A stretch of DNA of 64,000 bases from Ostreococcus lucimarinus (lineage: Eukaryota): assembly GCA_000092065.1 (NCBI GenBank), contig CP000581.1. One strand, given 5' to 3'. The translations under genes and the position numbers were made by a program. The notes below the pieces were generated by a model. That model saw only the letters and a list, made by a program, of their open reading frames with translations, made no database searches and had not been told where the DNA came from. This document shows positions 2,151 to 42,215 of this stretch, in pieces (the first letter of the stretch is position 1; each line of letters starts with the position of its first letter).

Positions 2151-2336
2151 ACAGTGACGCGATGTTTACGGACGGCGACTCGCAAACACCCGGGTGTGAG
2201 GGGGGGGGACGAAACGAGACGTCGAACGCATCGACGACGCGCAATCGTCGACGCGCGCGACCGAACGAACGCGCGAACGCGCGAACGCGCGCGCGCGAAG
2301 ACGGACGGACGCGAACGCGGGGCGTCGACGCGCGCG

Positions 2337-4183: not shown

Positions 4184-4238
4184 GCAAGACTCAAGCAAGA
4201 CTCAAGCAAGACTCAAGCACGACTCAAGCAAGACTCAA
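4184..4238. repeat. 11-bp microsatellite (gcaagactcaa)x5 in the intergenic/UTR region
   Basis: Five tandem 11-mers (one with an A>C change) between the stop at 4124 and the AKR gene. Confidence 0.85.
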
Positions 4239-4337
4239 GTATGCGACGCAACGCTCGCGCAGCGAACACTTGTTCAATAAGCATTTAATTTACTGTATAC
4301 GCAGCACACGTAACGACGGCGCCGCGCCACGCGCCAC

Positions 4338-10282: not shown

Positions 10283-10485
10283 CGCTCGCGTCGCCGCGGC
10301 GTCGCGGCGCGCGTCACCGCGGCGTCGAAGAATGCCATCGCGTCGAATCCGCGTCGGCGCGTCCGCGACGCCGCAGTGACGCGCGCGGGGCGGCTTCGCG
10401 CGCGCGCGCGCGCGCGCCGGTCGAGCGTCGCGCGACGCGCGTCGCGCTCGACGCCGACGCGGATTCGACGCGCGCGGCGCGCGAG

Positions 10486-12186
10486 ATGCCGCGCGCGAGG
10501 GCGAAAGACGGCGCGCGCGTCGTTCGCGCGATTTCGACGGCGCGCGACGCGGCGCGCGACGCGCGCGCGCGCGCGCGCGATGGACGACGATGGACGTCGA
10601 CGCGCGCGCGCGCGGGCGCGGAGGCGTCGACGTCGGCGCTCGGGAGCGGGCTGGACTTTCGAGCGCTGACGCGCGCGGGCGAGACGGCGAGCGCGGCGTA
10701 CGCGAGGCTGTGCGCCGAGGGCGTCGTGCGCGAAGACGAGGCGCAGAGACACGCGCTGAAAGCGCTGGACGTCGTCGGAGGGCGCGCGAGAGGGACGCGG
10801 CGGAGGGAAGGACTCGGCGCGGTGGGCGCGGGGGGAGGGTGGTCGTTCGCGGGGTGGCTCGGCGGCGACGCGAGCGCGAAACGCGAGGTCGAAGCCGGAG
10901 AGGGGGGGGCGTACGTGCACGGGGGACCGGGAAGCGGGAAAACGTTTGTGATGGATTTGTTTTACGCCACGCTGGACGGTGAACACGGCGTGGAGAAGCG
11001 TCGGGAGCATTTTCACTCGTTTATGCTCGAGACGCACACGCAGTTGCACAAGTTGAAGGACTCGGATAAGAACATGGACACCGTGGGTCAATACGCGTCG
11101 GCGTTGGCGAGAAAGATGCGCGTGCTGTGCTTGGACGAGTTTCAAATCGTCGACGTCGCGGACGCGATGATCATCAAGCGTCTGCTGGAAAATCTCTGGG
11201 CCGAGGGCGTGCTGGTGGTGACGACGAGCAACAGACATCCGGATGAGTTGTACAAGAATGGGTTGAATCGCGCGCAGTTTTTGCCGTGCATAGCGGAAAT
11301 TAAAAGACGATGCATCGTGCACGAGATGGCGAGCGATCGCGATTATCGTCTCACTGGACGCGCACGGAGTGAGGAGGACCAAGCGATGTGGAAATCCGGC
11401 GGCGACGAAGCCGAGCGCGAGCGTTGGCTGGTCGAACGCTTGCAAGTGCTCGCGGGCGAGCGCTCGTTCAAACCGCTACAAATAGCGATCGGTGGACGCC
11501 TCGTGCACGTCCGGCGCGCGGGTGGTGGCATCGCTCACTTTGATTTTAACGAGTTGTGTGACAGCGCTCTGGGCGCCGCCGATTACACCGCCCTCGCGAG
11601 CATCTTCAACTCCATAGGCGTCGGGCACGTGCCGACTTTGAGCTCAGACAGACTCGATCTGGTGCGAAGATTCATTACATTCATAGATGTCATGTACGAG
11701 CATAAGGTGAAACTCCTCGTGAGTGCGGATGCGTCGCCTGAAGAGCTGTACCGCGCGAGCGCCGGCGACGGATCTCGCAAAAACGCCGCCCGCGACGAAG
11801 AGTTCGCGTGGGACCGCGCAGCGAGTCGACTCGCGGAGATGCAGTCGAAAGAGTTTCAAGAGGCACCTTGGAATCCAAAAGCTGGGAGCTGGTTGCTCGA
11901 ACAGGCGCGCGTCACCGAAGTCGTTCCAGCGCAGGTTCTGCGCTCCTTGTGGCAACGCTACGACCGCAACCGAGACAACGTTTTGGACGAAACCGAGCTC
12001 GAGTGTTTGGTGGGCGACTTGAACCAGCTGCGAAGTGGACACAGGCACGTGTCCGAAGAACAATTAGACGCCGTGATGTCCATCGTGCGTGGATCGAAAA
12101 ATTTGCGCGAAAATCGATACATGACGTACGAAGAATTCACGCGATACGGGCACGCCGCCATGCTCGAATGCATGCGCGACCGCTAG
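10486..12186 (+). CDS. AFG1/LACE1 (ZapE)-family ATPase with a C-terminal EF-hand
   Basis: Walker A GGPGSGKTFVMDLFY, Walker B RVLCLDEFQIVD and the VTTSNRHPDELY block are typical of AFG1. The C-terminal extension carries a canonical EF-hand loop, DRNRDNVLDETEL. The real start may be an internal ATG such as 10590. Confidence 0.8.
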   Translation: MPRARAKDGARVVRAISTARDAARDARARARDGRRWTSTRARAGAEASTSALGSGLDFRALTRAGETASAAYARLCAEGVVREDEAQRHALKALDVVGGRARGTRRREGLGAVGAGGGWSFAGWLGGDASAKREVEAGEGGAYVHGGPGSGKTFVMDLFYATLDGEHGVEKRREHFHSFMLETHTQLHKLKDSDKNMDTVGQYASALARKMRVLCLDEFQIVDVADAMIIKRLLENLWAEGVLVVTTSNRHPDELYKNGLNRAQFLPCIAEIKRRCIVHEMASDRDYRLTGRARSEEDQAMWKSGGDEAERERWLVERLQVLAGERSFKPLQIAIGGRLVHVRRAGGGIAHFDFNELCDSALGAADYTALASIFNSIGVGHVPTLSSDRLDLVRRFITFIDVMYEHKVKLLVSADASPEELYRASAGDGSRKNAARDEEFAWDRAASRLAEMQSKEFQEAPWNPKAGSWLLEQARVTEVVPAQVLRSLWQRYDRNRDNVLDETELECLVGDLNQLRSGHRHVSEEQLDAVMSIVRGSKNLRENRYMTYEEFTRYGHAAMLECMRDR

Positions 12187-15279: not shown

Positions 15280-18200
15280 TTACTTGTCCTCGTTCGACAT
15301 GTCGAGGAGCTGCGTGAAATAATCCACCGCGCTGGCTGCGGTTTTCTTCGTTTCGTTGGTGTTTGTCTTGCGCGTGATGACGCTGCGCAGGGATGAAATG
15401 GTCATCGATTTGACGACGTCTTCGGCTTCGACGTCTTGAACCGAAATACCCATGGACTCGGCGTATTTGGATTTGAGATCGTCGAGTTCGCCGGCCACTT
15501 TTTTGGACTCTTCGAGAACCTTGAGTTCTTCATCGCTCAGGTTCACAAAGTCGCGGAGACGCTTTTTGGCCTCGTCGAGGGAAACGCGGAGGCGCTTGAT
15601 CTCCACGGCGTACTCATCGCGTTCGGTTGCCGTCTGCTCAAACGAACGTTCGAGCGCAAGTCTGTCGGCCTCGAGCTGCTTTTCTCGATCGGAGACGCTA
15701 AGCCTGAGGCTCTTTTCGGCTTTAGACTTTTCTTCCGCGACGATTTTGAGCGCTTTTTCGCGACTCGCTTTGAGCGCCGCGTCCTTCGCCGCGATGGTGT
15801 CTCTCAGTCGTGCCTCGTACGATTCGCGAAGCTTGGCGATATCGATCTCGCTTCGCTCGCGAAGTTCCTTGAGACTCGCTTGAGTTTTGGCTATCTCTTC
15901 GGCGTAAGCGTCAGCGTCGCCACGTCTGCCGGTCGAGGTCGCAACTTCCTTCTCAACAATCTTTTCAACCTCAACAATCTTCTCGACGACCTTCTCGACT
16001 ATTTGCGGCGGTCCGCCTGTTTGCCCGGCGCGCTTTTCCGCGTCGCGCACAGCCCGTTGAAGCGTTTCAACTTCTTGACGGAAGTCTACGACTAGCTTAT
16101 CAAACTGCGCGTTGAATTTGGCTTCAATTTCCAGATCACGATCGTTGAGCATGTTTTCAAAGTTGGCAATTTTGGCCTTGAGTTTATCATTCGCCTTCTT
16201 CGCCGTCGCACGAAGCGCCGCTTCAGATTTTGAGCGTTCGGCGGCGGCGATGGCCAATTGATCGCGCAACGCCTTCTTCGCTGTGGTTTCCGCCTCTCTC
16301 AGAGCCGCGATATATTCACGCTGTGCCGCGAGCTTGGCACTCTCGGTGAGCTTCTTTGCCGCCGCGATTTCAGTGCGCAAAGTCTTTTCCATACGGTCGC
16401 GCTCCGCCTTCGCAGCTTCCATCGCGGACGCCAACTTCTGGTTCGCAATCTTCTCAGAGTTTGCGAGCTGATTTTCGAGTGTAGAAACTTTGGATTCCAA
16501 AGCCTTAAGCTTTGATTCGGATTCGATGCGCATTGCTTTCTCTACCGCCTCGATTTCAGCCTTTTGTGCCGTCTTAAATTCGCTCAGTTTCTTCACGGCG
16601 GCTTCAAGATCACGCTCGAGCGTCGCAACCTTGCTAGGCGATTGAGCGGGCTTGCTCTTCTGTATGACTGACTCCGTCGGTGTAGACGCGTTCGTCTCCT
16701 TCATCGAGCGATTCGACGCGCCGAAGAGACGTTCAAAGAGCGAAGGCGCGGAAGTCTTCGCCGCTTCTTCAGCCGCCAACGCCGCTTCTTCAGCCGCCAA
16801 CGCCGCATCTTCCTTCGCTTTCGTAGCTTCTTCCTTCGCTGCAAGCAACTGATCGCGCAAAGTAACCATTTCACTTTGCGCCGCACGAAGCTTACGCTCG
16901 GCGTCTTCGCGCGCGGCTCGTTCAGCTGCAACCTTGCCTTTGTTGAATTCAAAGAGAGGGCGCTGAACGGAGGTTTCCGATACCACCTTCGATGACGAAG
17001 ATTGCTTCTTTGCGACATCGAGTTCATCAGTGAGTGCACCAACGCGTTGCTCATAAAAGGCGATCTTCTCTGCGAGAGTTACTTGCTCGGATTTCAATCT
17101 TCGCTCGAAGTCTTCCTTCATCAAAAGCATCGAACGGGACCATTTCGCCTCCGCTTCGGCAAACTCGGCCTGAACACTCGCAAGTCGATACTGGACATTC
17201 TCCATTTTCTTCGCCTGTTCCGCATAATCCCTGTGCGCACGTCTGATTTGCTTCTCAAGTTCGCGTTCGCGTGACTTGAGTTGCTTGTTCATTAGCTGCG
17301 CCGAGTCTCGTACGCGTTCTTTGAAGTCTTCGCGCAACGCGGCGAGAAGAACTTCAACCTCTCGCGTGTGCTCCTTGCTTTCTTGAATCTTTTGGTTGAA
17401 TTCTAAAGTAGCATCAGCCATTGTTTGAGCGACAGCGCGAACGATCTCGTCATTGTGCTTTTCCTTCATCGCGTTCATTTCAGAAATTCTAGAACCCAAC
17501 ATCGCCTGACTATTTTGATACTTGACCAAAATATCTGCTCGTTCGGATTCAAGACTGCGCACATTCGCTTCGTCGGCCTGAACACTCGCAAGTCGATACT
17601 GGACATTCTCCATTTTCTTCGCCTGTTCCGCATAATCCCTGTGCGCACGTCTGATTTGCTTCTCAAGTTCGCGTTCGCGTGACTTGAGTTGCTTGTTCAT
17701 TAGCTGCGCCGAGTCTCGCACGCGTTCTTTGAAGTCTTCGCGCAACGCGGCGAGAAGAACTTCAACCTCTCGCGTGTGCTCCTTGCTTTCTTGAATCTTT
17801 TGGTTGAATTCTAAAGTAGCATCAGCCGTTGTTTGAGCGACAGCGCGAACGATCTCGTCATTGTGCTTTTCCTTCATCGCGTTCATTTCAGAAATTCTAG
17901 AACCCAACATCGCCTGACTATTTTGATACTTGACCAAAATATCTGCTCGTTCGGATTCAAGACTGCGCACATTCGCTTCGTACGACTTTGCTTGATCTTT
18001 CCAAGCAACGGAGTCGAATTGCCATGCGTCACGTTCTTGCTCCAACTTGGCCATTTTACGAAGCATTTGTGCGACGGCAGCAGTCATCTCGTCATCCTCA
18101 TCAAACGACGCCGAGGCGTTTTCGGTAAGTCGCGCCAAATCGAGCGCATACTTTGTCTCTGCGTCGGCAACCGCACGTTCTCGCTCTTCGTTCAGGCGCG

Positions 18201-21200
18201 CCACGGTTACCGCGAGCTGTTCTTGAGCATCAGCTTGGAGCTTGGCGATGGCTGCGACGGTATCATCGCCGCTTTTAAGCTTGGACTCAAGCTCGGAGAT
18301 GCGTTGCTTGTACTCTTTGACAGTGGTTTCACTCTCGGCGGCAAAAGTAGAAGATGCGTTACTGACGGCGTCCTTCAACTCTGCTTTGAGTGCCGCGATT
18401 TCATTCGCTGAAGCTGAACTTTTTTGTTCAAACTCCAATGTCAGACGCGATATTTCCTCACGAAGCTTGACTTCGCGCTCTTGCGCATCGCGTGCTTCAG
18501 TCTCTGCAGCTGATAACAGCACAGTTTGATCTTTGATCTGAGCATTTACAGCATCAAGGGACGCGTCCTGTCCCTGGGAAGCGCCGATGATGCTAGCAAA
18601 AATTCCACCTCGATCGCCTTTCGCCTTGTCCAAAACAGCCTTGTATTTCTCTTCAGCCTTTTGCATGCCCTTGCGAGCTTTTTCTAGTTCCTTTTCTAGT
18701 CGTCGCTCGGAATCCAGCTTCTCAGACTGTAGTCTTGTCGTGACCGATAGCACATCTTGATCACGCTCAGCGCGGACGGCTTTGATTTGCGCTTCCAAGT
18801 CGAAGATATGCTTTTCCACGTCCGGGCTGCTCCTCTTAGCTTGCGTAGCGAACTCCGCTTCAAGTTTCTCAAGCTTTTCTTGAAGCGCGTCGCGCTGCTT
18901 CTTGAGACGCTTGACTTCGCCAGTGCTTCCCTCGAACTTGTACGTGACAGATTGGGGAAGGGTGTACTTAACTACACTCTTCTCACGCTTTTGCTGTTGT
19001 TTGCGTTTAAACGCATCCAACTCCTTGCGAGCCTCAGTGACTTCAAGCCTGAGCTCTGCTTCCGTCTCCGTCGCCGTGCGCTTGAGAGTCTTATTGAGCT
19101 TCTTTATCGTCGATTCGTAACCTTCGGAAACCTCTTCTAGTTGAAGTTCCAGTCGCTTGACTGTCGCCTCGTACTCCGCGGCGATTTCATCAGCCTGTAT
19201 CTTCGCAGACCTCTCAACTTCTTCGAGTTTTGCTTTCCACAAGTCCTCAGCTTGCTTTACCTTTGTAGTTTCATCGCTCGCGAGAGAAGTTTTCATGGCG
19301 TTTTGCAGGGTCTCGATCTCGAGAGTCTGAGCCGTGATCAGCGCCTCTTTTTCTTCTTGGAAGAGCTTTGACTCCTGCGATACGCGGTCATCCGCTTCCG
19401 ACTTGACCAAAGCAACCAACGCTACTCGATCAGCCTCCGCTGACGCCTGAATTTCAGCGACGGCTTGGATAAGCTCTCGTTCGGCGCTTTCGTTGGCATC
19501 GGCGAGTTGCTTCTTCAGAGCTGCAACTTGGTCATCAATCGTAGCGGTCTCTGTGTCCGTTTTCGACGTCGATTTCATGTTCGCGATAGTTTGCTCGTAG
19601 AGCCGCTTGGACTTTTGCATCTCGTCAAGTTGGGATTCAAGGCGTGTGACTTGCGCTTGAAGCGCGTCGCGCTCCTTCTCTAGCGATGCATCTACCTTGT
19701 TGCCAGTAAACTTATATGTCACTGTTTGAGGCAGCGTGTACTTGATGCCACCCTTACTTTTTTGCTTGAGGTCTTCGAGGTCCTTTTTCGTCGATTCGAC
19801 TCGTTTTCTAAGTTCACTTTCGCTAGACTTAGATGCTGCGAGCTGCGCTTTAATTTTCTTCATCTCATCGTCGTCACTCGACACCCACGCAGTAGAAGAT
19901 TGAAGCGCATCAATTTTACCTTGATACTCTTGCTTCAACCGATCAATCTGTGCATCCTTGGCTGCTTCGACCTCACGAATCTTCTGTTCCCAGAAAATAG
20001 ATGATTGAGCCTCGGCAGTGGCTACCTCAGCCGTGAACTCAACCATAGCGTCTGCGGACTGTTTTATCGCTTCGTTTCGCATCATCGCATACAGCGCGCG
20101 GCGCTCGCCAGCGCTTGAACGAGACGAAGCGTCGCGTTGCGCCAGCTCGGAAGACGCAAAGGCCTGAATACTAGCGACGGCCTCGACGAGATGCTCCTCG
20201 GCGATGGCTTTTTGCTCTTGCAAACGCCACGACTGCTCAGACAGCTGCTTCTTGAGATCCAGGATCATGGCATCCTTCGCCGCTGACTCGTCGCTCCCAG
20301 CGGTCGTCGCCGCGGGCACGGCGGGCGCCGCGCGTGCAGACGCCTTGAGTGACTCAATCTTCGCGTCATACTCTCGCTTGGTCTTCTGCATTTCCGTCAG
20401 CTGCGACTCGAGCGCGCTGATCTTGGCCTGCTGAGCCTTCATCAGCTTGTCGTCCGTGGAACCGCCCTCGAATGTGTACTTGATAAACTGCGGAAGTGTG
20501 TACTTCACACCGTTCTTCGACGCAGTCTTGAGCGACTGAAGTTCGGCTTTCGCCGCGTCGACTTGACCTCGGAGTTCGAGTTCGATCGACGAGCGCTTGG
20601 AGAGCTGCGCCTGCAGGTCGGACACGACGCTCGAGAGACCATCACTACCAGACGCCTTGGACATTGATGCCTTGAGCTCCTCGAGTTCACGCAGCGATGC
20701 GTCGAGCTGCGCCTTCTCGGCCGCCGCCGCCGCTTGCAGCTTGGCATTATCAGCGAGGATCGTCGCGACAGCCGCCTCAACTTGCTCTTCGGCATCGTTT
20801 TCGGCATCCTGCAGCTTCTTGTTGAGGGCGTCGATTTCGGCGCTTCTGTCAGAAACACCGGTCGTAGTGCTCGCCTTACTGGCCGCCCGGACTCGTTCGA
20901 TCTCTTCGTTGTGTGCCTTCTTCAGAGCAACCACGCGCTGCTCAAACTGAATCTGCGCGTCACGAATGGCGTCGTTCACTTGAGCGCTCGTGTCCACAGG
21001 TGAACCGGACGACGCGCGCAATGACGCCTCCAGCTGTTCGTTCTCAGCCTTGAGCTCAGCGACGGCCTCGACGAGCTGCTCCTCGGCGATGGCTTTTTGC
21101 TCTTGCAAACGCCACGACTGCTCAGACAGCTGCTTCTTGAGATCCAGGATCATGGCATCCTTCGCCGCTGACTCGTCGCTCCCAGCGGTCGTCGCCGCGG

Positions 21201-24200
21201 GCACGGCGGGCGCCGCGCGTGCAGACGCCTTGAGTGACTCAATCTTCGCGTCATACTCTCGCTTGGTCTTCTGCATTTCCGTCAGCTGCGACTCGAGCGC
21301 GCTGATCTTGGCCTGCTGAGCCTTCATCAGCTTGTCGTCCGTGGAACCGCCCTCGAATGTGTACTTGATAAACTGCGGAAGTGTGTACTTCACACCGTTC
21401 TTCGACGCAGTCTTGAGCGACTGAAGTTCGGCTTTCGCCGCGTCGACTTGACCTCGGAGTTCGAGTTCGATCGACGAGCGCTTGGAGAGCTGCGCCTGCA
21501 GGTCGGACACGACGCTCGAGAGACCATCACTACCAGACGCCTTGGACATTGATGCCTTGAGCTCCTCGAGTTCACGCAGCGATGCGTCGAGCTGCGCCTT
21601 CTCGGCCGCCGCCGCCGCTTGCAGCTTGGCATTATCAGCGAGGATCGTCGCGACAGCCGCCTCAACTTGCTCTTCGGCATCGTTTTCGGCATCCTGCAGC
21701 TTCTTGTTGAGGGCGTCGATTTCGGCGCTTCTGTCAGAAACACCGGTCGTAGTGCTCGCCTTACTGGCCGCCCGGACTCGTTCGATCTCTTCGTTGTGTG
21801 CCTTCTTCAGAGCAACCACGCGCTGCTCAAACTGAATCTGCGCGTCACGAATGGCGTCGTTCACTTGAGCGCTCGTGTCCACAGGTGAACCGGACGACGC
21901 GCGCAATGACGCCTCCAGCTGTTCGTTCTCAGCCTTGAGCTCAGCGACGGCCTCGACGAGCTGCTCCTCGGCGATGGCTTTTTGCTCTTGCAAACGCCAC
22001 GACTGCTCAGACAGCTGCTTCTTGAGATCCAGGATCATGGCATCCTTCGCCGCTGACTCGTCGCTCCCAGCGGTCGTCGCCGCGGGCACGGCGGGCGCCG
22101 CGCGTGCAGACGCCTTGAGTGACTCAATCTTCGCGTCATACTCTCGCTTGGTCTTCTGCATTTCCGTCAGCTGCGACTCGAGCGCGCTGATCTTGGCCTC
22201 TAGCGCGTTAACATTCGCAGTGTTTTCCGGTGTTTTTCTAGACGTGTCTTCGAATTTGTAAGTAATGCTTTCCGGCGAAGTGTACTTGACGGTCTGCTGT
22301 GCGGATGCTATCTGATTTCGGAGATCACGCTCAACTTCGGTTCGCTCGCGCAGCTGCCGCTGGAGCTCCGTAATCTCCGCCGACACGTCCACGCCCGGTG
22401 TGTCTGATTTGATTAAAGCCTTCAGCTCTTCGAGCTCGCACAGGGACGCGTCGAGCTGCGACTTTGCAGCGTCAACCGCGGCTTGCAGCCGGTCTTTATC
22501 AGCAACGATTTCCGCTACCGCGCGCTTTACTGCCTCTTCGCGTTCTTTTTGCGCATCTTCCAACTGCTTATTGAGCGCGGCGACCTGCGCGTCCACATCT
22601 TTGCTACTACTCGAGCTGGATGAGGCTTGTAAATCCGCAATCTTTTGTTCGTACGACTGCCTGAGCTGCTTCAGCTGTGCATCCTTCATGAGCTCAACGT
22701 CCTTGATCTTTTTCTCCCAGTATGCAGGAGATTCCACAGCGTGGGTGCTGGCCTTACTGGCCGCCCGGACTCGTTCGATCTCTTCGTTGTGCGCCTTCTT
22801 CAGAGCAACCACGCGCTGCTCAAACTGAATCTGCGCGTCACGAATGGCGTCGTTCAGCTGAACTCTTGCTTCGGCAGTTGAGCTGGACGATGCGCGCAAT
22901 GAAGCCTCCAGCTGTTCGTTCTCAGCCTTGAGCTCAGCGACGGCCTCGACGAGCTGCTCCTCGGCAATTGCCATGTTCTCAGACAGCTGCTTCTTGAGAT
23001 CTATGATTTCTTCGTTAGCGTCAAACTGGTTCAATCTCTTAACCGCCTCGGCGCGCATCATTTTGTACATCGCGTTACGTTCTCCAGTTGTGGATTTAAG
23101 AGCTGACTCGAGTTGTACCTTGCTAGCTTCAGCAAGCGACTGGATTTCAGCAACCGCTCGAACGAGCATATCATCATACATCTCCTTGAGCGTAGTTACA
23201 TCCTGTTTTACCGCGTCCTGCTCTGAAGCAAGATTCGATTTAACGTTGATGCGCTCGGCTTCAAACTGTGCGAGAAGCTGAGCTTTTGACGCTTCACTCT
23301 CGTTCAACTTGGAGATAGCGTCACGTGCGCGATCCTCCGCTTGCGTGACTCTTCTATCCGACTCTCTACGTGCGTCTTCTAATGCTGTCGCGTGAGCAGC
23401 GGCTGTAGTCTGTATCGCCATCTGATGCGCCTGTTCGAGGGCTTTTATTTTGGCTGGTGCGTCATCCTTCGTCGCGCTCCTTTTAAGGCGCTCTAGCTCT
23501 TCGTTGTGCGCCTTCTTCAGAGCAACCACACGCTGCTCAAACTGGATCTGCGCGTCACGAATGGCGTCGTTCATCTTCTTGCTACTCGAAACTTCGCTTA
23601 TGGCAACTTCACTTTGAAGCCGCGTCAAAGTTCGCTCGCTCGCTTTGCGCATCTCAGAGTCGAACATCGACTTGAGCGCACGACGCTCGCCCGCAACTCC
23701 ACGCACAGCTTCGTCACGAACTGCGTCAACGTCCACGTCGTTTCGCATTTCGACCGGAGATACCGCGACCTGAGATTTCTTTGAAACCTTGACTCGTTCG
23801 ATCTCTTCGTTGTGCGCCTTCTTCAGAGCAACCACGCGCTGCTCAAAGTTAAGCTGCTCCTCACGGAGTGCCGCGTTAAATTGATCGACGCTCAGCGCGC
23901 TCTGGCTCGGCTTTGAGGCGTTACTCGCCTTGACTCGTTCGATCTCTTCGTTGTGCGCCTTCTTCAGAGCAACCACGCGCTGCTCAAAGTTAAGCTGCTC
24001 CTCACGGAGTGCCGCGTTAAATTGATCGACGCTCAGCGCGCTCTGGCTCGGCTTTGAGGCGTTACTCGCCTTGACTCGTTCGATCTCTTCGTTGTGCGCC
24101 TTCTTCAGAGCAACCACGCGCTGCTCAAATTTAAGCTGCTCCTCACGGAGTGCCGCGTTGAATTGATCGACGCTCAGCGCGCTCTGGCTCGGCTTTGAGG

Positions 24201-26307
24201 CGTTACTCGCCTTGACTCGTTCGATCTCTTCGCTGTGCGCCTTCTTCAGAGCAACCACGCGCTGTTCAAACTGGATCTGCGCGTCACGAATGGCATCGTT
24301 CGCTTGAGCGCTTACATCGACAACCGATGTGACTGGATCGGCGCGCTCAACTGGAGCGCCGCGCTCGATGTTGCGTCCAGGACTGGCCTTGTTCATCTCC
24401 GAATCAAGAAGCGCCTTTAGCGCTCGTCGCTCCCCAGCGGCACCGCGCATCGCGCTGTCGTACTTGGCCACGAGAGAGCTAATTTCAACTTCAGCCTCGG
24501 CACGTATTTCGGCAATCTTCGAAAGGAACTCGTCCTGAGTCGTCGAGTCACTGTCTTGAATCAGTCCCGCCACCGGCTCCCGTACTTTTGAGAGCGTGGC
24601 GGCAAAATCGGCCCGCTCTTTCACAATTCTCTCGCTATAAGACGCACAAATCGCTTTCAGTTGATCTTCGAGGAATGACAGGCGTTCTCCAGAGGTGACC
24701 TTCGCAAGAGCCAATTCTGACCGAAGCGTCGCCAGGTGCATGCGCTGCAGGTCACGTGATGCGCGATACTTGCTTGCTTCACTTCTTCCAAGTTCGCGTT
24801 CAGCGCGAATCAAGCCACGCGCGGCTCTAATTTCGATTTCATGACGCGTCGCCATAGATTTGTTCACCTCTTTCGCTTCGTGCAAAGCATCCTCAGCAAT
24901 ATTCAGCGCTTTCTCAAGCCTCTCGATGCTGCCCTTCAGCGTAACCTCTTGCGCGTGGAAGGCAGCTTCGTTTGCTTTGATGGCGGTTTCGTGCTCCTCT
25001 TTCATCTTTACGAGCACACGTTGAAGTTCTTCGGTGCTTTGTCCTCCCGCGCCGGCGCTTGAAAGCGAATCGATTTGCACATCCTTCATGTGGCGCTTGA
25101 AGTCGTCGTTCAGAGTCTTGAGGTTATCATTCTTCTCCTTCTTCATGGCGCCGAGCTTTTCGATTTCGGTTTCAAACTCCAGAATCATTGACTGCCGCAG
25201 TACTTCTAAGCGTCGCACCGCGCTACTATCGCTTTCCAAAGGCTGAGCAAGACTGGGCAAACGTTCCAATTTGGATCGCACTTTTTGCACGTCAACGCCA
25301 GAGCGAGAGATACCGAAGCCGATTGCCGCAGCGGCAACTGCAGCCGCAGACGCGATACCAGCTACCGCAGCGGTTTTTGCAACGACTGGCGGAAGCGCAT
25401 TATTGTGACGCAAAGTCATCGAGGTCGCATTTACCGCTGGTAAATTTTGAGCGAACGGGGCGACTGTTGCCGTTTTCACCACATTTTTTGGACGCTCAGC
25501 CACGATCGAGGTCGTCACCTGCGGCACAGTCGGCGACGCCGCGCGCCGATCGGCTGAAAAACTGTGTTTACCTCCGATAAGAGCCACGGCCGTCGCGATA
25601 CCACCGTAAATGAGCTTGGTCTCGGTATCGAATCTCTCAGTCGCGCGCATCATCGTCGTCGCGAGGGATGTCTGTTGTATTTTTTTCCGCACGATGGACG
25701 TCGTTTCTACCGTCTTCTTCACAATACTCGTCGTGGCCTTCATCCCAAGCGCCACGACTTCGTTCGCATCGCTCGATCGTTCGCATCGTTCGCATCGTTC
25801 GCATCGTTCGCATCGCTCGCATCCCTCGCCATCCTCATCGTCGTGCTCGTGCTCGTGCGATTCTTCGTACTCTTCGTACGCCTCGTCCGACATCCACGAG
25901 AACGACGCGAACCCGGGCGCGCTGTCGAACCCAGCCATACCAACTCTCCCCGCCCCCGGTCGCCGAACTTCACGCTCTTCGTCCTCGTCTTCCGCGCCCC
26001 CCCCGACCTCGAGCTCGAGCACTATCTCGTCCACGAGCTTGTATCCGCGAAAACTCGCCGTCCCGACGCCGTTTTCAAACATCGCGCGTCCGATCTCTCC
26101 CGGCTCGTCCCCTCGTCCCGCGCACGTCACCACGCGCCCGACTCGCATCGACGCCCTCCCGCGCGCGCTCGCCCGCGCGTCGCTCGCGCTCGCCCCTCGC
26201 GTCGCGTCGCCGCGCCGCTTCCCTCCCTCTCGCGTCGTCTCCCGCCGCCCCAGCGCGAGCGCGCCGCGCGCGCGCGTCGACATCACCCCGCGATCGACGA
26301 TCGCCAT
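15280..26307 (-). CDS. giant (3675 aa) coiled-coil protein with internal tandem repeats; function unknown
   Basis: Single uninterrupted 11-kb ORF. The composition is heptad-like, rich in E/K/A/L/Q. There are several families of exact in-frame DNA repeats. The non-coiled motif VKYTLPQ(F/T/S)(I/V)xYxFEG recurs 5 times. The N-terminus has HEHEHDDEDGEG-CERCERCERCERCER. The C-terminus is ...DYFTQLLDMSNEDK. Confidence 0.8.
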   Translation of the reverse strand: MAIVDRGVMSTRARGALALGRRETTREGGKRRGDATRGASASDARASARGRASMRVGRVVTCAGRGDEPGEIGRAMFENGVGTASFRGYKLVDEIVLELEVGGGAEDEDEEREVRRPGAGRVGMAGFDSAPGFASFSWMSDEAYEEYEESHEHEHDDEDGEGCERCERCERCERCERSSDANEVVALGMKATTSIVKKTVETTSIVRKKIQQTSLATTMMRATERFDTETKLIYGGIATAVALIGGKHSFSADRRAASPTVPQVTTSIVAERPKNVVKTATVAPFAQNLPAVNATSMTLRHNNALPPVVAKTAAVAGIASAAAVAAAAIGFGISRSGVDVQKVRSKLERLPSLAQPLESDSSAVRRLEVLRQSMILEFETEIEKLGAMKKEKNDNLKTLNDDFKRHMKDVQIDSLSSAGAGGQSTEELQRVLVKMKEEHETAIKANEAAFHAQEVTLKGSIERLEKALNIAEDALHEAKEVNKSMATRHEIEIRAARGLIRAERELGRSEASKYRASRDLQRMHLATLRSELALAKVTSGERLSFLEDQLKAICASYSERIVKERADFAATLSKVREPVAGLIQDSDSTTQDEFLSKIAEIRAEAEVEISSLVAKYDSAMRGAAGERRALKALLDSEMNKASPGRNIERGAPVERADPVTSVVDVSAQANDAIRDAQIQFEQRVVALKKAHSEEIERVKASNASKPSQSALSVDQFNAALREEQLKFEQRVVALKKAHNEEIERVKASNASKPSQSALSVDQFNAALREEQLNFEQRVVALKKAHNEEIERVKASNASKPSQSALSVDQFNAALREEQLNFEQRVVALKKAHNEEIERVKVSKKSQVAVSPVEMRNDVDVDAVRDEAVRGVAGERRALKSMFDSEMRKASERTLTRLQSEVAISEVSSSKKMNDAIRDAQIQFEQRVVALKKAHNEELERLKRSATKDDAPAKIKALEQAHQMAIQTTAAAHATALEDARRESDRRVTQAEDRARDAISKLNESEASKAQLLAQFEAERINVKSNLASEQDAVKQDVTTLKEMYDDMLVRAVAEIQSLAEASKVQLESALKSTTGERNAMYKMMRAEAVKRLNQFDANEEIIDLKKQLSENMAIAEEQLVEAVAELKAENEQLEASLRASSSSTAEARVQLNDAIRDAQIQFEQRVVALKKAHNEEIERVRAASKASTHAVESPAYWEKKIKDVELMKDAQLKQLRQSYEQKIADLQASSSSSSSKDVDAQVAALNKQLEDAQKEREEAVKRAVAEIVADKDRLQAAVDAAKSQLDASLCELEELKALIKSDTPGVDVSAEITELQRQLRERTEVERDLRNQIASAQQTVKYTSPESITYKFEDTSRKTPENTANVNALEAKISALESQLTEMQKTKREYDAKIESLKASARAAPAVPAATTAGSDESAAKDAMILDLKKQLSEQSWRLQEQKAIAEEQLVEAVAELKAENEQLEASLRASSGSPVDTSAQVNDAIRDAQIQFEQRVVALKKAHNEEIERVRAASKASTTTGVSDRSAEIDALNKKLQDAENDAEEQVEAAVATILADNAKLQAAAAAEKAQLDASLRELEELKASMSKASGSDGLSSVVSDLQAQLSKRSSIELELRGQVDAAKAELQSLKTASKNGVKYTLPQFIKYTFEGGSTDDKLMKAQQAKISALESQLTEMQKTKREYDAKIESLKASARAAPAVPAATTAGSDESAAKDAMILDLKKQLSEQSWRLQEQKAIAEEQLVEAVAELKAENEQLEASLRASSGSPVDTSAQVNDAIRDAQIQFEQRVVALKKAHNEEIERVRAASKASTTTGVSDRSAEIDALNKKLQDAENDAEEQVEAAVATILADNAKLQAAAAAEKAQLDASLRELEELKASMSKASGSDGLSSVVSDLQAQLSKRSSIELELRGQVDAAKAELQSLKTASKNGVKYTLPQFIKYTFEGGSTDDKLMKAQQAKISALESQLTEMQKTKREYDAKIESLKASARAAPAVPAATTAGSDESAAKDAMILDLKKQLSEQSWRLQEQKAIAEEHLVEAVASIQAFASSELAQRDASSRSSAGERRALYAMMRNEAIKQSADAMVEFTAEVATAEAQSSIFWEQKIREVEAAKDAQIDRLKQEYQGKIDALQSSTAWVSSDDDEMKKIKAQLAASKSSESELRKRVESTKKDLEDLKQKSKGGIKYTLPQTVTYKFTGNKVDASLEKERDALQAQVTRLESQLDEMQKSKRLYEQTIANMKSTSKTDTETATIDDQVAALKKQLADANESAERELIQAVAEIQASAEADRVALVALVKSEADDRVSQESKLFQEEKEALITAQTLEIETLQNAMKTSLASDETTKVKQAEDLWKAKLEEVERSAKIQADEIAAEYEATVKRLELQLEEVSEGYESTIKKLNKTLKRTATETEAELRLEVTEARKELDAFKRKQQQKREKSVVKYTLPQSVTYKFEGSTGEVKRLKKQRDALQEKLEKLEAEFATQAKRSSPDVEKHIFDLEAQIKAVRAERDQDVLSVTTRLQSEKLDSERRLEKELEKARKGMQKAEEKYKAVLDKAKGDRGGIFASIIGASQGQDASLDAVNAQIKDQTVLLSAAETEARDAQEREVKLREEISRLTLEFEQKSSASANEIAALKAELKDAVSNASSTFAAESETTVKEYKQRISELESKLKSGDDTVAAIAKLQADAQEQLAVTVARLNEERERAVADAETKYALDLARLTENASASFDEDDEMTAAVAQMLRKMAKLEQERDAWQFDSVAWKDQAKSYEANVRSLESERADILVKYQNSQAMLGSRISEMNAMKEKHNDEIVRAVAQTTADATLEFNQKIQESKEHTREVEVLLAALREDFKERVRDSAQLMNKQLKSRERELEKQIRRAHRDYAEQAKKMENVQYRLASVQADEANVRSLESERADILVKYQNSQAMLGSRISEMNAMKEKHNDEIVRAVAQTMADATLEFNQKIQESKEHTREVEVLLAALREDFKERVRDSAQLMNKQLKSRERELEKQIRRAHRDYAEQAKKMENVQYRLASVQAEFAEAEAKWSRSMLLMKEDFERRLKSEQVTLAEKIAFYEQRVGALTDELDVAKKQSSSSKVVSETSVQRPLFEFNKGKVAAERAAREDAERKLRAAQSEMVTLRDQLLAAKEEATKAKEDAALAAEEAALAAEEAAKTSAPSLFERLFGASNRSMKETNASTPTESVIQKSKPAQSPSKVATLERDLEAAVKKLSEFKTAQKAEIEAVEKAMRIESESKLKALESKVSTLENQLANSEKIANQKLASAMEAAKAERDRMEKTLRTEIAAAKKLTESAKLAAQREYIAALREAETTAKKALRDQLAIAAAERSKSEAALRATAKKANDKLKAKIANFENMLNDRDLEIEAKFNAQFDKLVVDFRQEVETLQRAVRDAEKRAGQTGGPPQIVEKVVEKIVEVEKIVEKEVATSTGRRGDADAYAEEIAKTQASLKELRERSEIDIAKLRESYEARLRDTIAAKDAALKASREKALKIVAEEKSKAEKSLRLSVSDREKQLEADRLALERSFEQTATERDEYAVEIKRLRVSLDEAKKRLRDFVNLSDEELKVLEESKKVAGELDDLKSKYAESMGISVQDVEAEDVVKSMTISSLRSVITRKTNTNETKKTAASAVDYFTQLLDMSNEDK
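17165..17980. repeat. 408-bp (136-aa) tandem duplication, 2 copies, ~99% identical, in frame inside the giant gene
   Basis: Copy 1 starts at 17165 and copy 2 at 17573, with 2-3 mismatches. Duplicated ORFs appear in the track at 17002/17425 and 17425/17833. Confidence 0.85.
20175..22199. repeat. 885-bp (295-aa) tandem repeat, 2.3 copies, ~100% identical, in frame inside the giant gene
   Basis: Copies start at about 20175, 21060 and 21945. Identical six-frame ORFs are offset by exactly 885 bp (20505/21390, 20597/21482, 20734/21619, 20990/21875). Confidence 0.9.
23789..24290. repeat. 141-bp (47-aa) tandem repeat, ~3.5 copies, inside the giant gene
   Basis: The unit ttgactcgttcgatctcttcgttgtgcgcc... 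recurs at 23789, 23930, 24071 and 24212. It encodes KASNASKPSQSALSVDQFNAALREEQL(K/N)FEQRVVALKKAHNEEIERV. Confidence 0.85.
25760..25825. repeat. 9-bp coding microsatellite (cgttcgcat)n encoding (Cys-Glu-Arg)5 on the minus strand
   Basis: cgttcgcat x5 read directly from the sequence. On the gene strand it gives GEGCERCERCERCERCERSS near the N-terminus of the giant protein. Confidence 0.85.
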
Positions 26308-26797
26308 CCTCGCGCGCGCGCGCCCGGCGTCTCCCCGTATCGCGCGCGTCCGACGACGCCACTAATCCAAAACCCGACCGATCGCGTCCCGCGCGCGCGC
26401 GTCCTCGTCGCGTCGCGTCGCTCCGATCGCCCGCGTCGCTCGAATCGCGCTCGCGCGCGTCGGCGTCGACGCGCGTCGATCACTGCGCCGCGCGGCGGCG
26501 CCGCGCGCGACGTCCGCGGTCGATCCGCGTCGCGCGGTCGGTCGGTCGGTCGCCGTTTTATCGCGGCGCGCGCGCGCGCGTCACATGGCGTTCGAGTCGG
26601 TACACTACGACGTCCGCGCGCGTCGTCGTCGCCCCTCGCGCGACGGGTCCGATCGCGACGTCGTCGTCGTCGTCGACGCGCGATCGAGGGTCGACGTCGG
26701 CGCGCGATCGACGCCGCGCGTTTCGCGTCGCGCGCGGGCGCGGCGATCGCGCGCCGACGCGCGATAGGGTCGCGGCGGCGCGAGACGACGACGCGCG

Positions 26798-29110
26798 ATG
26801 GCGACGACGACGACGATGCGCGTCGCGGACGCGAGAGGCGCGATGACGCGAGGCGGCGCGCGATGCGCGCGACGCGCGACGGCGCGACGCGCGACGCGCG
26901 CGACGGCGCGACGCGCGACGGTGGCGAACGCGGGGCAGACGATGTACGATAAAATCATCGACGACCACCGCGTGCGAACGCAGGACGACGGGACGCTGCT
27001 GCTGTACATCGATCGACACATGATACACGAGGTGACGTCGCCGCAAGCGTTCGAGGGGCTGCGAACGGCGGGACGGGCGGTGCGACGACCGGATAACACG
27101 CTGGCGACGGTGGATCACAACGTGCCCACGAGCGACCGGAGCGGGTTCGAGAGCGCGGAGACGTTCATCAAGGAGATGGACTCTCGCGTGCAGGTGTTGC
27201 AGCTGGAGGAGAACGTGGAGGAGTTTGGGGTGACGTATTTCGGGATGGACGATAAGAGACAGGGGATCGTGCACATCATCGGACCGGAACAGGGGTTCAC
27301 GCTGCCGGGGACGACGGTGGTGTGCGGGGACTCGCACACGGCGACGCACGGCGCGTTCGGGGCGCTGGCGTTCGGAATCGGGACGAGCGAGGTCGAACAC
27401 GTGCTCGCGACGCAGACGTTGTTGCAAAAGCCGTCGAAGAATATGCGAATCACGATCGATGGGAAGCTCGGAGATGGGGTGACGAGTAAGGATATTATTT
27501 TGCACATCATCGGCGTCATCGGCACGGCGGGCGGAAACGGCTCCGTGATTGAATTCGCGGGCGAAGCCATTCGCTCGCTCTCCATGGAGGCGCGAATGAG
27601 TATTTGTAACATGGCCATTGAAGGTGGGGCGCGCGCGGGTATGATTGCCCCGGATGAGATCACGTTCGAGTACCTCAAGGGTCGTCCGATGTCGCCTCGA
27701 GGGGAGACGTGGAATCGCGCGGTCGAGTACTGGAAGTCTCTCGCCTCCGACGCGGATTCCAAGTACGATCGCGAGATCGTTATTCCGGCGTCCGATATCG
27801 AACCCACGGTGACTTGGGGGACGTCCCCGCAAGATGTCGTTGGGATTTCGGGCATCGTTCCCGATCCGAAGGACTTCGACGAGGCGCGCGGCAAGTCGAT
27901 GCAACGCGCGCTCGATTACATGGGTCTGACCCCGGGCACTAAGATGCAAGATGTCGTCGTCGACAAGGTGTTCGTCGGCTCGTGCACGAACGGTCGCATC
28001 GAAGACGTGCGCGCGGTCGCCGCGGTGGCCAAAGGTAGAAAGGTTGCCGACAACGTGTACGCCATGGTCGTCCCGGGTTCGGGCATCGTCAAGGAGCAAG
28101 CCGAAGCCGAAGGCTTGGACGTCATCCTCAAGGAAGCTGGCTTCGACTGGCGCGAGCCCGGTTGCTCGATGTGTTTGGCAATGAACCCGGATAAGTTGCT
28201 TCCGGGCGAACGCTGCGCGTCAACCTCCAACCGTAACTTTGAAGGTCGTCAAGGCAACGGCGGTCGCACGCACTTGATGTCGCCGGCGATGGCTGCCGCC
28301 GCGGCCATCACGGGTAAGCTTTGCGACGTCCGCACCCTCGGCTCTGGCGCTGTCTTGACCGGCGAAGATGCTCCGGGTAAGCTCGAAAGCAAGGACTTCT
28401 TATCGGACGCCTTGGTCACTTCCCCGCCGCCGCAAAAGAAGGACAACGGTCCGGCGGGCGCGGGCGGCATGGCCAAGTTTACCACCTTGAAGGGTGTAGC
28501 CGCGGCCATGGAACTTCAGAACATCGACACCGATATGATCATCCCCAAGCAATTCTTGAAGACGATCAAGCGCACCGGCCTCGGAGTCTCTGCGTTTTAC
28601 GAAATGCGTTACGACGAGCAAGGCGTCGAACGCCCGGATTTCGTGTTGAACAACGAGCCGTACCGCAACGCCTCCATTTTGGTCGCCGGTAACAATTTTG
28701 GTTGCGGGTCTTCTCGTGAGCACGCGCCGTGGGCGATTAATGACTTCGGCATTCGATGCATCATCTCCACCGCCTTTGCCGACATCTTCTTCAACAACTG
28801 CTTCAAGAACGCCATGTTGCCAATCGTTCTCGACGAAGCCACCGTGAACACGCTCATGGCGGACGCCAACGCCAAGCAAGAGCTCGAAATCGACTTGCCG
28901 AACCAAGTCGTCATTCGATCAAACGGCGAGAAGATTCCATTCGAAGTCGACGAGTTCCGCAAGCACTGCTTGATCAACGGCTTGGACGACATCGGCTTGA
29001 CGATGCAGCAAGACGCCGACATCGCCGCGTTCGAGGCCAAGCGCACCGAAAACTTCCCGTGGCTCAACGGCGCCGGCTACGTCCAAGGCAGCGCCACCCC
29101 GGCGCGTTAA
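26798..29110 (+). CDS. 3-isopropylmalate dehydratase, fused large (LeuC) and small (LeuD) subunits, with an N-terminal presequence
   Basis: LeuC region: [11 protein letters not shown]...[18 protein letters not shown] and the aconitase-family Cys ligands (VCGDSHT, GSCTNGR, GCSMCL). LeuD-like C-terminal domain: [21 protein letters not shown]. The conserved core starts at ATG 26942. The preceding 48 codons (Arg/Ala/Thr-rich) look like an organellar transit peptide. Confidence 0.9.
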
Positions 29111-29240: not shown

Positions 29241-30410
29241 TTGCCCGACATGTTCCGCCGAGCCGGCGACAAATTTGCCGCGCGAACCGCGCGCGCGACG
29301 TTCGCGCTCTTCGGCGACGTCACCGCGTCCACGCGCGTTCCGCGCGCGTCGTCTCGCGCGCGACGGTTCGCCCAACCGTCAGCCATCGCCATCGCGCGCG
29401 AATTCGCCGACGACGCGCACAATCGCGTGCGCTACCCTTCGCCCGAGGTGAAGATCGGCCAGCCCGCGCCGCAGTTCGATTCTCCCGCGTGCGTCGACGG
29501 CGATCTCGGCCGGGTGAAGCTGAGCGATTACCTCGGGAAGTATTGCGTGGTGTTCTTCTACCCGCTCGACTTTACGTTTGTGTGCCCGACGGAGATCACG
29601 GCGTTTAACGATCGCGCGGATGAATTCGAAGCGCTGAACACGAAAGTGATAGCGGTGTCGACGGATAGTGAGTACTCGCACTTGGCGTGGACGATGATGG
29701 AACGCGAACGAGGCGGTTTGGGGGCGATGCGGATACCGATCGTGAGCGACCGGACGAAGGAGATCAGCGCCAAGTACGGAGTGCTGTTCGAAGACCGAGG
29801 AATTGCGCTGAGAGGGCTGTTTATCATCGACGACGAGGGGATCGTGCAGCAGATCACGATGAATAACTTGCCCGTGGGGCGGAGCGTGGACGAGACGCTG
29901 CGGCTCGTGCGAGCGTTTCAGTACACGGCGGAACACGGCGAGGTGTGTCCGGCGGGATGGACGCCCGGTGCGCCCACGATGATCGATGATCCTGAAAAGT
30001 CCAAGACGTATTTCGAGCAACACGCTGGCGCGCCAAGTGGGGGATCGTCTTCAAGCGGCGGTTCGTCGAACGGCGATTTCGCCGCCAAGCTCACGCCCAT
30101 CGCGTCGCGCGCAGACTTCAACGCCTTGATCGCTGGACCCAAGCCAGTCGTCGTTGATTTCATGGCGAGCTGGTGCGGCAAGTGTCGACAAATCGCCCCG
30201 GAGGTCGACAAGCTCATCGATCAGTACCCGGATGTCGTCTTCGCGAAATTCGACACGGCGCACGCGGATTTGGCGCCTCTCTCCAAGGAGTTGGGCATCG
30301 AGGCCATGCCGACTTTCAAGTTTTACAAGGACGGCAAAGAAGTCAACGAAGTGATCGGTTACAAGCCTAAGCTCTTGCGCGACGCCGTTGTTGATTTCGC
30401 GGGCCATTGA
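29241..30410 (+). CDS. typical 2-Cys peroxiredoxin fused to a C-terminal thioredoxin domain, with an N-terminal presequence
   Basis: Peroxidatic Cys in [14 protein letters not shown] and resolving Cys in GEVCPAGW. A Gly/Ser linker ([16 protein letters not shown]) follows, then a thioredoxin fold with WCGKC active site ([20 protein letters not shown]...[11 protein letters not shown]). The ~60-aa N-terminal extension is Arg/Ala-rich. Confidence 0.85.
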
Positions 30411-30440: not shown

Positions 30441-31613
30441 CTAAACGCGCGCTTTTGATTCCACCTCCACCGTGCTTCCATTCGTCGCCCGTGTGTGCTT
30501 GATGACCACACTTTCACCACGCTCGCGCGCTACTCTGACGTTCATCCAAATCTCGAATGCGAGTGCGAGGCGACGTTGCGTCGGCGCGTCGCGTTCCGCC
30601 CGAGCTGGATCTACTCTAACGATCTCGTCGACGTCGCACTGTTCGTGGATAAACGATTTAATGCTCGCAAAAACGTCGCCATCGCGTGGAAACGCACAAA
30701 TCATCGTGTCGAACACGAATCTGTAGTACGACCACAGCGCCTCGTGTCCCGGGTATTGGCGTATGAGGTGACGCGACAATTCGTCTTCATAGAGTACAAT
30801 CGAACGACGATCCGCCGGCCGCGCGCCCAACGCGCGCTTGACGATGTGCGACCGGTAGTGCAACGCGCAATGATCGCTCACGCTCGTTCGCACGCGGCGT
30901 TCGTTTTCACAGAGCTCTTGATCTAACAACTCCCGACGGTTCGGCAAAAGGCGCCGCAGCGCCCACGCGCGATGCGACCACGCCGCGTAATTCAATCTCT
31001 TCTTCAACACCGCCGCGTCGCACGCCCGGCACTCTTCTCGAAACGTTTCTAGCGCCCACGCGTCCTTTTTCGACCCATCACCAATCACCGCCGCGCGCGC
31101 GGCGTCGATCACCCATCGCCGGTGCGCCCAAGCGCTCGGCGCCTTTGGAAATCGACTCTGCACCGCGCGCGCAAACGCCAACTCATCGCGCGCGCCTTCC
31201 ACCAATCCGTCCCGCTCGCGCGCGCTCATCTTCTCGACGCCGTCGAATCGCGCCTTCATCGTTCTCTTTCGCGCGTTCCACGCCGTGGCGTGATCGCCGT
31301 TCGCGCACAGCGCCGTCGCCGCCGCGTCGAAATCCGCGTCGTCGTCGTCGCCCTCCCATCGCCTCGCCGACGCCTCGCGCACGCCCACGACGGCGTCGTG
31401 CGACATCACCAGCGCGTCGCCGCACGCGTAAAACGCGTCCGGCATTCGCGACGCGTTCTCGTCGCCTCGCGTCGTTCCGAACAGCGCCGCTCGCGACACG
31501 TCCGGCGCGTGTTCGACGCTCCGCACCGCGCGCGTCCCGCTCGCGTCGTCGCGCGCGCCGAGCAATCGATCGAGCTCGATCGCCATCGCCGTCGCGCGCG
31601 CGCTCGGCGCCAT
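30441..31613 (-). CDS. protein prenyltransferase alpha-subunit repeat (PPTA) containing protein, PTAR1-like
   Basis: Repeated W-x-x-R-x-W/ L motifs characteristic of PPTA repeats: PSAWAHRRWVI, NYAAWSHRAWAL and ALWSYYRFV. Confidence 0.5.
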   Translation of the reverse strand: MAPSARATAMAIELDRLLGARDDASGTRAVRSVEHAPDVSRAALFGTTRGDENASRMPDAFYACGDALVMSHDAVVGVREASARRWEGDDDDADFDAAATALCANGDHATAWNARKRTMKARFDGVEKMSARERDGLVEGARDELAFARAVQSRFPKAPSAWAHRRWVIDAARAAVIGDGSKKDAWALETFREECRACDAAVLKKRLNYAAWSHRAWALRRLLPNRRELLDQELCENERRVRTSVSDHCALHYRSHIVKRALGARPADRRSIVLYEDELSRHLIRQYPGHEALWSYYRFVFDTMICAFPRDGDVFASIKSFIHEQCDVDEIVRVDPARAERDAPTQRRLALAFEIWMNVRVARERGESVVIKHTRATNGSTVEVESKARV

Positions 31614-31669
31614 CGCGCCGCGCCGCGCGCCGCGCGGTGCCGCACATCGCGCCCGGCCGGGCCGGCGCG

Positions 31670-42170: not shown

Positions 42171-42215
42171 CCGTCGCTCGCGGGCGTGTGCGGGACATCG
42201 CGACGCGCGCGCGCG

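Follow-up and report, generated by a model that had tools for sequence, protein, structure and literature searches.

Near-identical in-frame tandem-repeat arrays in a giant gene of Ostreococcus lucimarinus

A stretch of 64,000 nucleotides from chromosome 1 of the alga Ostreococcus lucimarinus CCE9901 (contig CP000581.1; hereafter the window, whose positions serve as coordinates) contains a giant open reading frame (ORF) with three arrays of near-identical tandem repeats, whose units are 885, 408, and 141 bp long. The arrays are very likely genuine in-frame segmental tandem duplications in one real gene, two of which (885 and 141 bp) are built on an older, diverged repeat element and are reshaped by exchange and gene conversion between copies.

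Three in-frame arrays and an older array of modules

The arrays were mapped by Tandem Repeats Finder (TRF), by a repeat finder, and by scanning directly for each period length, and the three methods are concordant. The positions of the ORF and the arrays are as follows.

15280–26307, minus strand: giant ORF of 3675 amino acids (aa) including the stop codon, with a predicted start; contains all three arrays.
20173–22199, minus strand: 885-bp (295-codon) array of 2027 bp; 2.29 copies, 1 mismatch in 1142 compared positions.
17165–17981, minus strand: 408-bp (136-codon) duplication; 2.0 copies, 2 mismatches (17311 and 17420 versus their partners).
23787–24264, minus strand: 141-bp (47-codon) array; 3.39 copies, 3 mismatches.

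According to the ORF listing and the translation, the giant ORF reads through all three arrays without interruption. In plus-strand coordinates, the copies of the 885-bp unit occupy 20173–21057, 21058–21942, and, as a partial copy, 21943–22199. The two full copies are identical, and the sole mismatch (20191 versus 21076) leads to a Q→H change in the 3′-most partial copy. One of the two mismatches in the 408-bp duplication alters an amino acid (T/M), and a further decayed copy of the 141-bp motif reaches ~24310. Across the three arrays, the mismatch between adjacent copies is 0.1–0.9%. Since exact repeats span hundreds of bases, a chance origin is excluded. With these periods, a head-to-tail order, unit lengths in multiples of three, and an intact ORF, the three are coding tandem-repeat arrays.

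The 885- and 408-bp arrays have sharp edges on both sides, where identity drops from 100% to background within a few bases, and the microhomology at the junction of the 408-bp duplication is 1 bp only. One edge of the 141-bp array fades gradually into the next copy of a conserved motif. A shorter repeat is shared by two of the arrays.

20894–24305 (span), minus strand: 88-nt motif (repeat family D2); eight copies, 85–100% identical, encoding FEQRVVALKKAHNEEIERV.

Its copies start at 20894, 21779, 22772, 23489, 23795, 23936, 24077, and 24218. The motif is present inside both the 885- and the 141-bp units; these are therefore separate arrays on a common older element. It is kept at 85–100% nucleotide identity inside modules that are otherwise only 30–65% identical. 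In addition, a peptide resembling FEQRVVALKKAHNEEIERV recurs in a TARA protein fragment (P0004) from another alga. The FEQRVVALKKAHNEEIERV motif could be a binding site and is a candidate for one.

The initial annotation had described three independent, frame-preserving arrays in one gene, with about 2.3 copies of the 885-bp unit starting at 20175, 21060, and 21945, a 408-bp duplication with two or three mismatches, and about 3.5 copies of the 141-bp unit. Our mapping agrees with it on the near-identity of the copies, on the frame, and on the copy numbers, and places the 885-bp starts 2 nt away, at 20173, 21058, and 21943. The 885- and 141-bp arrays are independent only in part, as they have the 88-nt motif in common.

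The protein sequence of one 885-bp unit, searched against overlapping pieces of the giant protein, finds diverged in-register copies at aa 1101–1356 (50% identity), aa 1961–2211 (47%), and aa 2218–2472 (30%). The first 85 aa of the copy at aa 1961–2211 are identical to the unit. Extended to module boundaries, these copies flank the 885-bp array on both sides.

22198–23082, minus strand: upstream older module (aa 1076–1370); ~50% aa identity to the unit, with repeat families D2, D4, and D5.
18883–20427, minus strand: two downstream older modules (aa 1961–2217 and 2218–2475), paralogous to the unit.

At the nucleotide level, the upstream module is 88–98% identical to the unit over unit residues ~60–137 and 30–75% identical elsewhere. 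The first 85 codons of the downstream module at aa 1961–2217 are the partial copy that closes the 885-bp array and are 100% identical to the unit; past these codons, the nucleotide identity falls to 30–58% (33–58% along the aligned part). Gene conversion between paralogous modules would leave such patches of near-identity. A module-terminal motif, (V/I)KYT.P....Y.F.G, occurs five times in the window protein and seven times in the long JGI alleles described below. By these comparisons, the 885-bp unit belongs to an older array of diverged modules of ~260–300 aa, of which it forms one.

Comparison with other genotypes and with another genome indicates that the giant ORF is a real gene. The ratio of nonsynonymous to synonymous polymorphism (pN/pS) is 0.20 against a locus 94% identical to the window (L020) and 0.23 against contig L001 (in the unique stretch 17983–20172). 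A syntenic ortholog of 2460 aa (P0104) is encoded at locus L031 of another Ostreococcus-like genome. The gene order prenyltransferase-like, peroxiredoxin-thioredoxin, aconitase-like, giant gene, AAA ATPase, 4HBT, AFG1 is common to L031 and the window. P0104 is collinear with the giant protein at the N-terminus (73% identity over aa 67–147 and 41% over aa 227–705) and at the C-terminus (48% over the final 870 aa).

P0104 has an in-frame tandem duplication of its own (339 bp, 2.0 copies, 84% identity, positions 8638–9293 of L031), at a different place in the module region. Because this duplication is separate, module gain is recurrent in the giant gene.

Copy number and divergence of copies in other assemblies

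Four other assemblies span the 885-bp array on long contigs. Two of them (L001 and L002) are ENA contigs with Flye-style names. The other two are JGI contigs of ~1.13 Mb each (3300046163 Ga0494222_0007 and 3300047157 Ga0494219_00011), which we rebuilt by joining overlapping loci via their record coordinates. Identity to the window is 99.2–99.6% over long alignments for L002 (97.9–98.3% in the upstream flank and the 5′ half of the gene), ~93–98% for L001, and 99.7–99.8% for both JGI contigs. The differences between the JGI contigs and the window are scattered over the whole region and are mostly common to both JGI contigs. Therefore, the JGI contigs derive from close relatives of CCE9901 and not from the same clone.

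The 885-bp array has 4.29 copies in L002 and in both JGI contigs and 4.3 copies in L001, as against 2.29 in the window. In accordance, the longer JGI gene product has 4265 aa, exceeding the 3675 aa of the window by 590 aa, or twice 295. The other JGI product (4077–4108 aa) is shortened by a frameshift in a (CER)n repeat, where JGI 3300046163 has two 1-bp deletions. A metagenome scan with a unique mid-gene segment yields seven contigs, all of them from short reads and all collapsed or broken at the 885-bp array. At this array, short-read scaffolds show 1.29 copies (0.29 in two contigs), an N gap, or a contig end. Because 1.29 copies is the shortest path through a looped assembly graph, short-read counts are uninformative on the true number. 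Among all assemblies compared, 2.29 copies are seen in the window only.

Two copies of the 408-bp unit are found in the window, the two JGI contigs, and CCE9901-like scaffolds (~99.8–99.9% identical across the 3′ half of the gene). L002 and L016–L019, a group 99.0–99.6% identical to the window, have one copy, as do L001 and L020, a group 94–97% identical. Since it is single in the more distant genotype groups, the 408-bp duplication is derived and recent. Three of the long contigs cover the 141-bp array; it has 3.4 copies there as well as in L014 and L016, and 2.4–2.6 copies in three short-read contigs. The initial annotation had suspected that copy number might be polymorphic and that repeats of this length might collapse during assembly. 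The first suspicion is supported at the level of assemblies: the 885- and 408-bp counts vary, the latter by genotype group, although a collapsed reference may account for the 885-bp difference. The second is supported as a risk, the higher 885-bp counts coming from long contigs only.

The arrays could in principle be assembly artefacts, for example the reads of one copy laid twice over a unit that is single in reality. The near-perfect identity of the copies would look alike in that case, L016–L019 have no 408-bp duplication, and some short-read contigs have 0.29–1.29 copies of the 885-bp unit. However, the same arrays with the same boundaries are found in independent assemblies from different projects, and the long contigs have more copies of the 885-bp unit. 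The copies also carry a few real differences, and the single-copy state of the 408-bp unit tracks divergence (the 99.0–99.6% and 94–97% groups), not assembly method. False duplication is barely credible on this evidence.

The copies differ in their divergence from one lineage to another. The 885-bp units of the window and the JGI contigs are identical but for one site in JGI unit 1. The units of L002 are 0–1 nt apart from each other and 3–4 nt from the window units, and three substitutions relative to the window are common to four of four. The units of L001 are 8–31 nt apart, with additional in-frame indels (3, 3, and 21 bp). Neighbouring L001 units are most alike and are nearer to each other than to any window unit, except unit 4, whose distance is near lineage-level divergence. 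Two sites of the 141-bp array vary (TTC/TTT and AAA/AAC). Their variants fall on different copies in the window, in L002, and in the JGI contigs, and this shuffling between assemblies indicates exchange between copies.

Because all four L002 copies carry the same lineage-specific substitutions, their near-identity points to concerted evolution, not to recent origin. The simplest reading is that the 4.29-copy array predates lineages 3–5% apart and has been strongly homogenised in the CCE9901/L002 branch. The initial annotation had taken near-identity as a sign of very recent expansion or of ongoing recombination and gene conversion. Exchange and conversion find support in the shared L002 substitutions, the shuffled 141-bp variants, and the patches of 88–100% identity in a background of 30–65%. 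Very recent expansion fits the 408-bp duplication, but not the 885-bp array, which is shared by those lineages and homogenised.

Alternatively, each lineage might have lately amplified a single module to 4.29 copies, so that identity would reflect youth. Within L002, the window, or the JGI contigs, copies are only 0–1 nt apart, as this would predict, and substitutions found in all copies of a lineage are also expected if one already-mutated copy was amplified. However, the same boundaries and the same final number would be needed three times, and the array of L001 is equal in number yet has copies 1–5% diverged, so it is not young there. Independent expansions thus seem unlikely. Two points weigh against the homogenisation of an old array. 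The array of L001 lies at a contig end and has a frame-breaking 1-bp insertion, so that some of the divergence between its copies may be sequencing error. In addition, equal copy number in three lineages could reflect parallel expansion under selection for length.

The count of 2.29 in the reference itself can be read in two ways. CCE9901 may truly have 4.29 or more copies, two identical units having been merged in the Sanger-era assembly; we consider this probable on balance. All four long-contig assemblies show the higher number, including those of genotypes ~0.2% from the window, and the lower number recurs nowhere else. The 885-bp units are 100% identical, and such a unit exceeds the typical Sanger read length. 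Moreover, the number is stable across lineages up to ~5% apart, so a change on the very short CCE9901 branch would be unlikely a priori.

Several points argue against a collapsed reference. The count of 2.29 is above the minimal graph traversal (1.29), which suggests that two full units had some backing when the genome was finished. The private Q→H variant at 20191 lies in the terminal partial copy, so that at least this part is strain-specific sequence and no consensus artefact. The CCE9901 genome is said to have been finished with clone-based checks. For either reading, the copy number of CCE9901 is taken from the assembled reference alone, and the long-contig assemblies come from metagenomes or samples of unknown origin, their read technology being deduced from contig size and naming.

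It is also quite possible that CCE9901 really has 2.29 copies, having lost two units by unequal exchange in nature or in culture, and that the reference is correct. Copies do exchange sequence in the giant gene, the shortfall amounts to precisely two units, as expected from unequal exchange, and the 408-bp copy number also varies between genotype groups on long contigs. Against such a loss stand the 4.29 copies conserved in three other lineages and the observation that no environmental contig has 2.29 or 3.29 copies, although short-read contigs are incapable of showing either.

With a collapsed reference, the gene model of 3675 aa would lack two modules (590 aa). Because every short-read assembly of this species collapses or breaks there, read mapping, variant calling, and metagenomic binning over 20.1–22.2 kb are unreliable. 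Neither the reference nor any short-read assembly can be relied on for this array.

Proposed origin of the arrays and the predicted protein

The 885-bp array probably arose by unequal homologous exchange between neighbouring modules with a similar 5′ segment. Two old modules with the same first 257 bp would change from A-B-A-B′ to A-B-A-B-A-B′, and later exchanges would add whole units. This would explain the fractional copy number (x.29), since the exchange partners had their first 257 bp in common, whereas simple duplication gives whole numbers. Unequal exchange and gene conversion would then keep the 885-bp units near-identical. The 141-bp array is probably a smaller version of the same process around a conserved FEQRVVALKKAH motif, and the gradual decay at its edge is consistent with the same exchange logic. 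The 408-bp duplication would be one recent event without pre-existing homology, confined to CCE9901-like genotypes; exactly 2.0 copies and a junction microhomology of 1 bp suggest such a single event.

The predicted product begins with an arginine-rich N-terminus, a conserved acidic motif, and one or two hydrophobic segments, which would be followed by a segmented α-helical rod (a predicted coiled coil) of ~3300 residues. The centre of the rod would be the old array of ~260–300-aa modules, each closed by a short non-helical linker, (V/I)KYTLPxxxxYxFxG. Each gain or loss of a unit would change the rod by a whole module (295 aa, ~44 nm if fully coiled coil) and would also alter the number of motif copies.

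In the giant protein, A, E, K, L, Q, and R are abundant and Pro accounts for 1.2%; its N-terminus is rich in R, A, and S. A Kyte-Doolittle scan detects a single strongly hydrophobic stretch. Two short in-frame repeats lie outside the three arrays.

25306–25386, minus strand: hydrophobic segment VVAKTAAVAGIASAAAVAAAAIGFGI (aa 308–334).
25760–25823, minus strand: 9-bp microsatellite TCGTTCGCA, 7.2 in-frame copies, translated as (CER)n near the N-terminus of the giant protein.
16759–16812, minus strand: 21-bp tandem repeat, 2.6 copies, in frame; its AAEEAAL-type heptads fall in the C-terminal third of the protein.

The orthologs P0104 and P0123 have hydrophobic segments at matching positions. Three N-terminal features are kept in orthologs: the acidic motif (GFDSAPGFASFSWMS[DE]E.YE), a pair of hydrophobic stretches, and the sequence that opens the helical part (RRLE.LR.SMILEFETEIEKLGA). 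P0103 has a CEG variant of the (CER)n repeat. A single-sequence AlphaFold2 model of 301 aa spanning one unit consists of helices of 17–67 residues (mean predicted local distance difference test score, pLDDT, 72). Three short non-helical linkers break the helices, and one of them is the motif NGVKYTLPQFIKYTFEG. The giant protein is probably a segmented helical rod, a predicted coiled coil, behind a possible membrane anchor; the coiled coil and the anchor are read from one single-sequence model and a hydropathy scan.

Searches with the giant protein find no Pfam family at E ≤ 0.1, no NCBIfam family at E ≤ 0.01, and no Protein Data Bank chain at E ≤ 0.001. An exhaustive HMMER search with one 295-aa unit finds ten representatives at E ≤ 0.001 among 1.84 billion; among those inspected, P0102, P0103, and P0104 are Ostreococcus-like fragments or orthologs, and P0106 seems unrelated. 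Shorter queries against a large protein database give six, three, and two matches, none of them named, among 8000 scored candidates, a search dominated by coiled-coil word matches. BLAST of the whole giant protein against itself gives the self-match only. An exact look-up of the gene product with eleven alternative start codons finds no entry in the protein collection. As judged from these searches, the giant protein is an orphan of ~3700–4300 aa confined to Ostreococcus and close relatives. It is unstudied and among the largest proteins of the genome.

A membrane-anchored tether or ruler, with a rod length tuned module by module through recombination and held by selection (4.29 copies in three lineages), is a speculative role that we regard as improbable. 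If it were true, the extended rod would measure ~0.5–0.6 μm for 3300–3900 helical residues, comparable to an Ostreococcus cell of ~1 μm in diameter. Selection could then act on module number as a functional trait tied to the dimensions of cell or organelle. In that case, control of length through a coding macrosatellite would be open to experiment in this gene of the smallest free-living eukaryote.

Known systems and the rest of the window

NUP-1 of Trypanosoma brucei exceeds 400 kDa, is almost all coiled coil, and contains 17 near-perfect 144-aa repeats, with a predicted extended length of ~400 nm (PMC3313915). Like NUP-1, the giant protein is very large and, as predicted, almost entirely a helical rod, with a central block of near-perfect long tandem repeats. 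However, we find no sequence relationship between the two. NUP-1 is without a predicted transmembrane helix, whereas the giant protein has a strongly hydrophobic segment, and the giant protein has far fewer identical copies, embedded in an older diverged module array.

The plant protein MFP1 has an N-terminal targeting region, a hydrophobic anchor, and a long coiled coil, and is several times smaller than the giant protein. It is a thylakoid-associated coiled-coil protein (PMC10801857), reported only in seed plants and undetectable in Chlorophyta (10.1101/2024.10.03.616402). Its likeness to the giant protein is one of layout; general searches turned up no homology, no direct comparison with MFP1 having been made. 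Given the reported absence of MFP1 from green algae, membership of the giant protein in the MFP1 family is unsupported.

Coding macrosatellites or variable number tandem repeats (VNTRs) that evolve by unequal exchange include the streptococcal M-protein repeat blocks, the human LPA kringle IV-2 array, and the triplicated segment of nebulin. The arrays of the giant gene resemble them in their head-to-tail units in multiples of three, near-identity within a genome, a copy number that varies between assemblies, lineage homogenisation, and collapse in short-read assemblies. They differ in organism and protein, and the algal units are exon-free within one continuous ORF of a compact, intron-poor genome. 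In addition, the algal variation is known between assemblies, not from population reads. A coding macrosatellite in a putative coiled-coil gene is therefore a phenomenon of a known kind, of which this is a further example, and current understanding is not overturned. On a small scale, the giant gene cleanly illustrates how modules turn over and evolve in concert within one single-copy gene, in an alga whose haploid genome is compact. In this gene, three layers (old diverged modules, conversion patches, and identical recent copies) lie side by side.

Several neighbouring ORFs match CCE9901 proteins exactly, among them ABO94032.1 and ABO94035.1 of a 1,152,508-bp contig. The neighbouring genes are eukaryotic and encode a MutS homologue, a nucleolar Npa1/NopRA1 protein, a Cdc48-like AAA ATPase, and an aconitase-family enzyme. 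Coding stretches of the window have a G+C content of 48–60%, and intergenic spacers reach 72–77%. The giant gene, at 48–60%, contrasts with these spacers. The spacers between divergent genes (10209–10579, 26159–26920, 31587–31756, 42199–42429, and 56167–56691; 72–77% G+C) contain degenerate CG-rich short repeats with periods of 2–75 bp.

A complete bacterial-type polyphosphate kinase, PPK1, is encoded on the minus strand at 7475–10282, with all four Pfam domains (E down to 1e-69). Its reference protein, ABO94028.1, has 813 aa and is shorter than the 935-aa ORF, which is backed by metagenome gene calls. A 386-aa gene on the plus strand (29250–30410) encodes a peroxiredoxin (AhpC-TSA and 1-cysPrx_C) with a C-terminal thioredoxin domain and an arginine-rich N-terminus ahead of them.

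An 11-bp tandem repeat, GCAAGACTCAA (5.1 copies, 95% match), occupies 4184–4239, ~100 bp upstream of an aldo-keto reductase ORF that starts at 4338. For the gene upstream of the aldo-keto reductase (1752–4124; ~1790–3650 in L003–L011), gene calls of 343, 373, 566, and 595 aa stand against a 790-aa ORF in the window, and region 1871–2303 contains most of the indel differences between the window and the JGI contigs. The stretch 1752–4124 looks like a second unstable or hard-to-assemble region.

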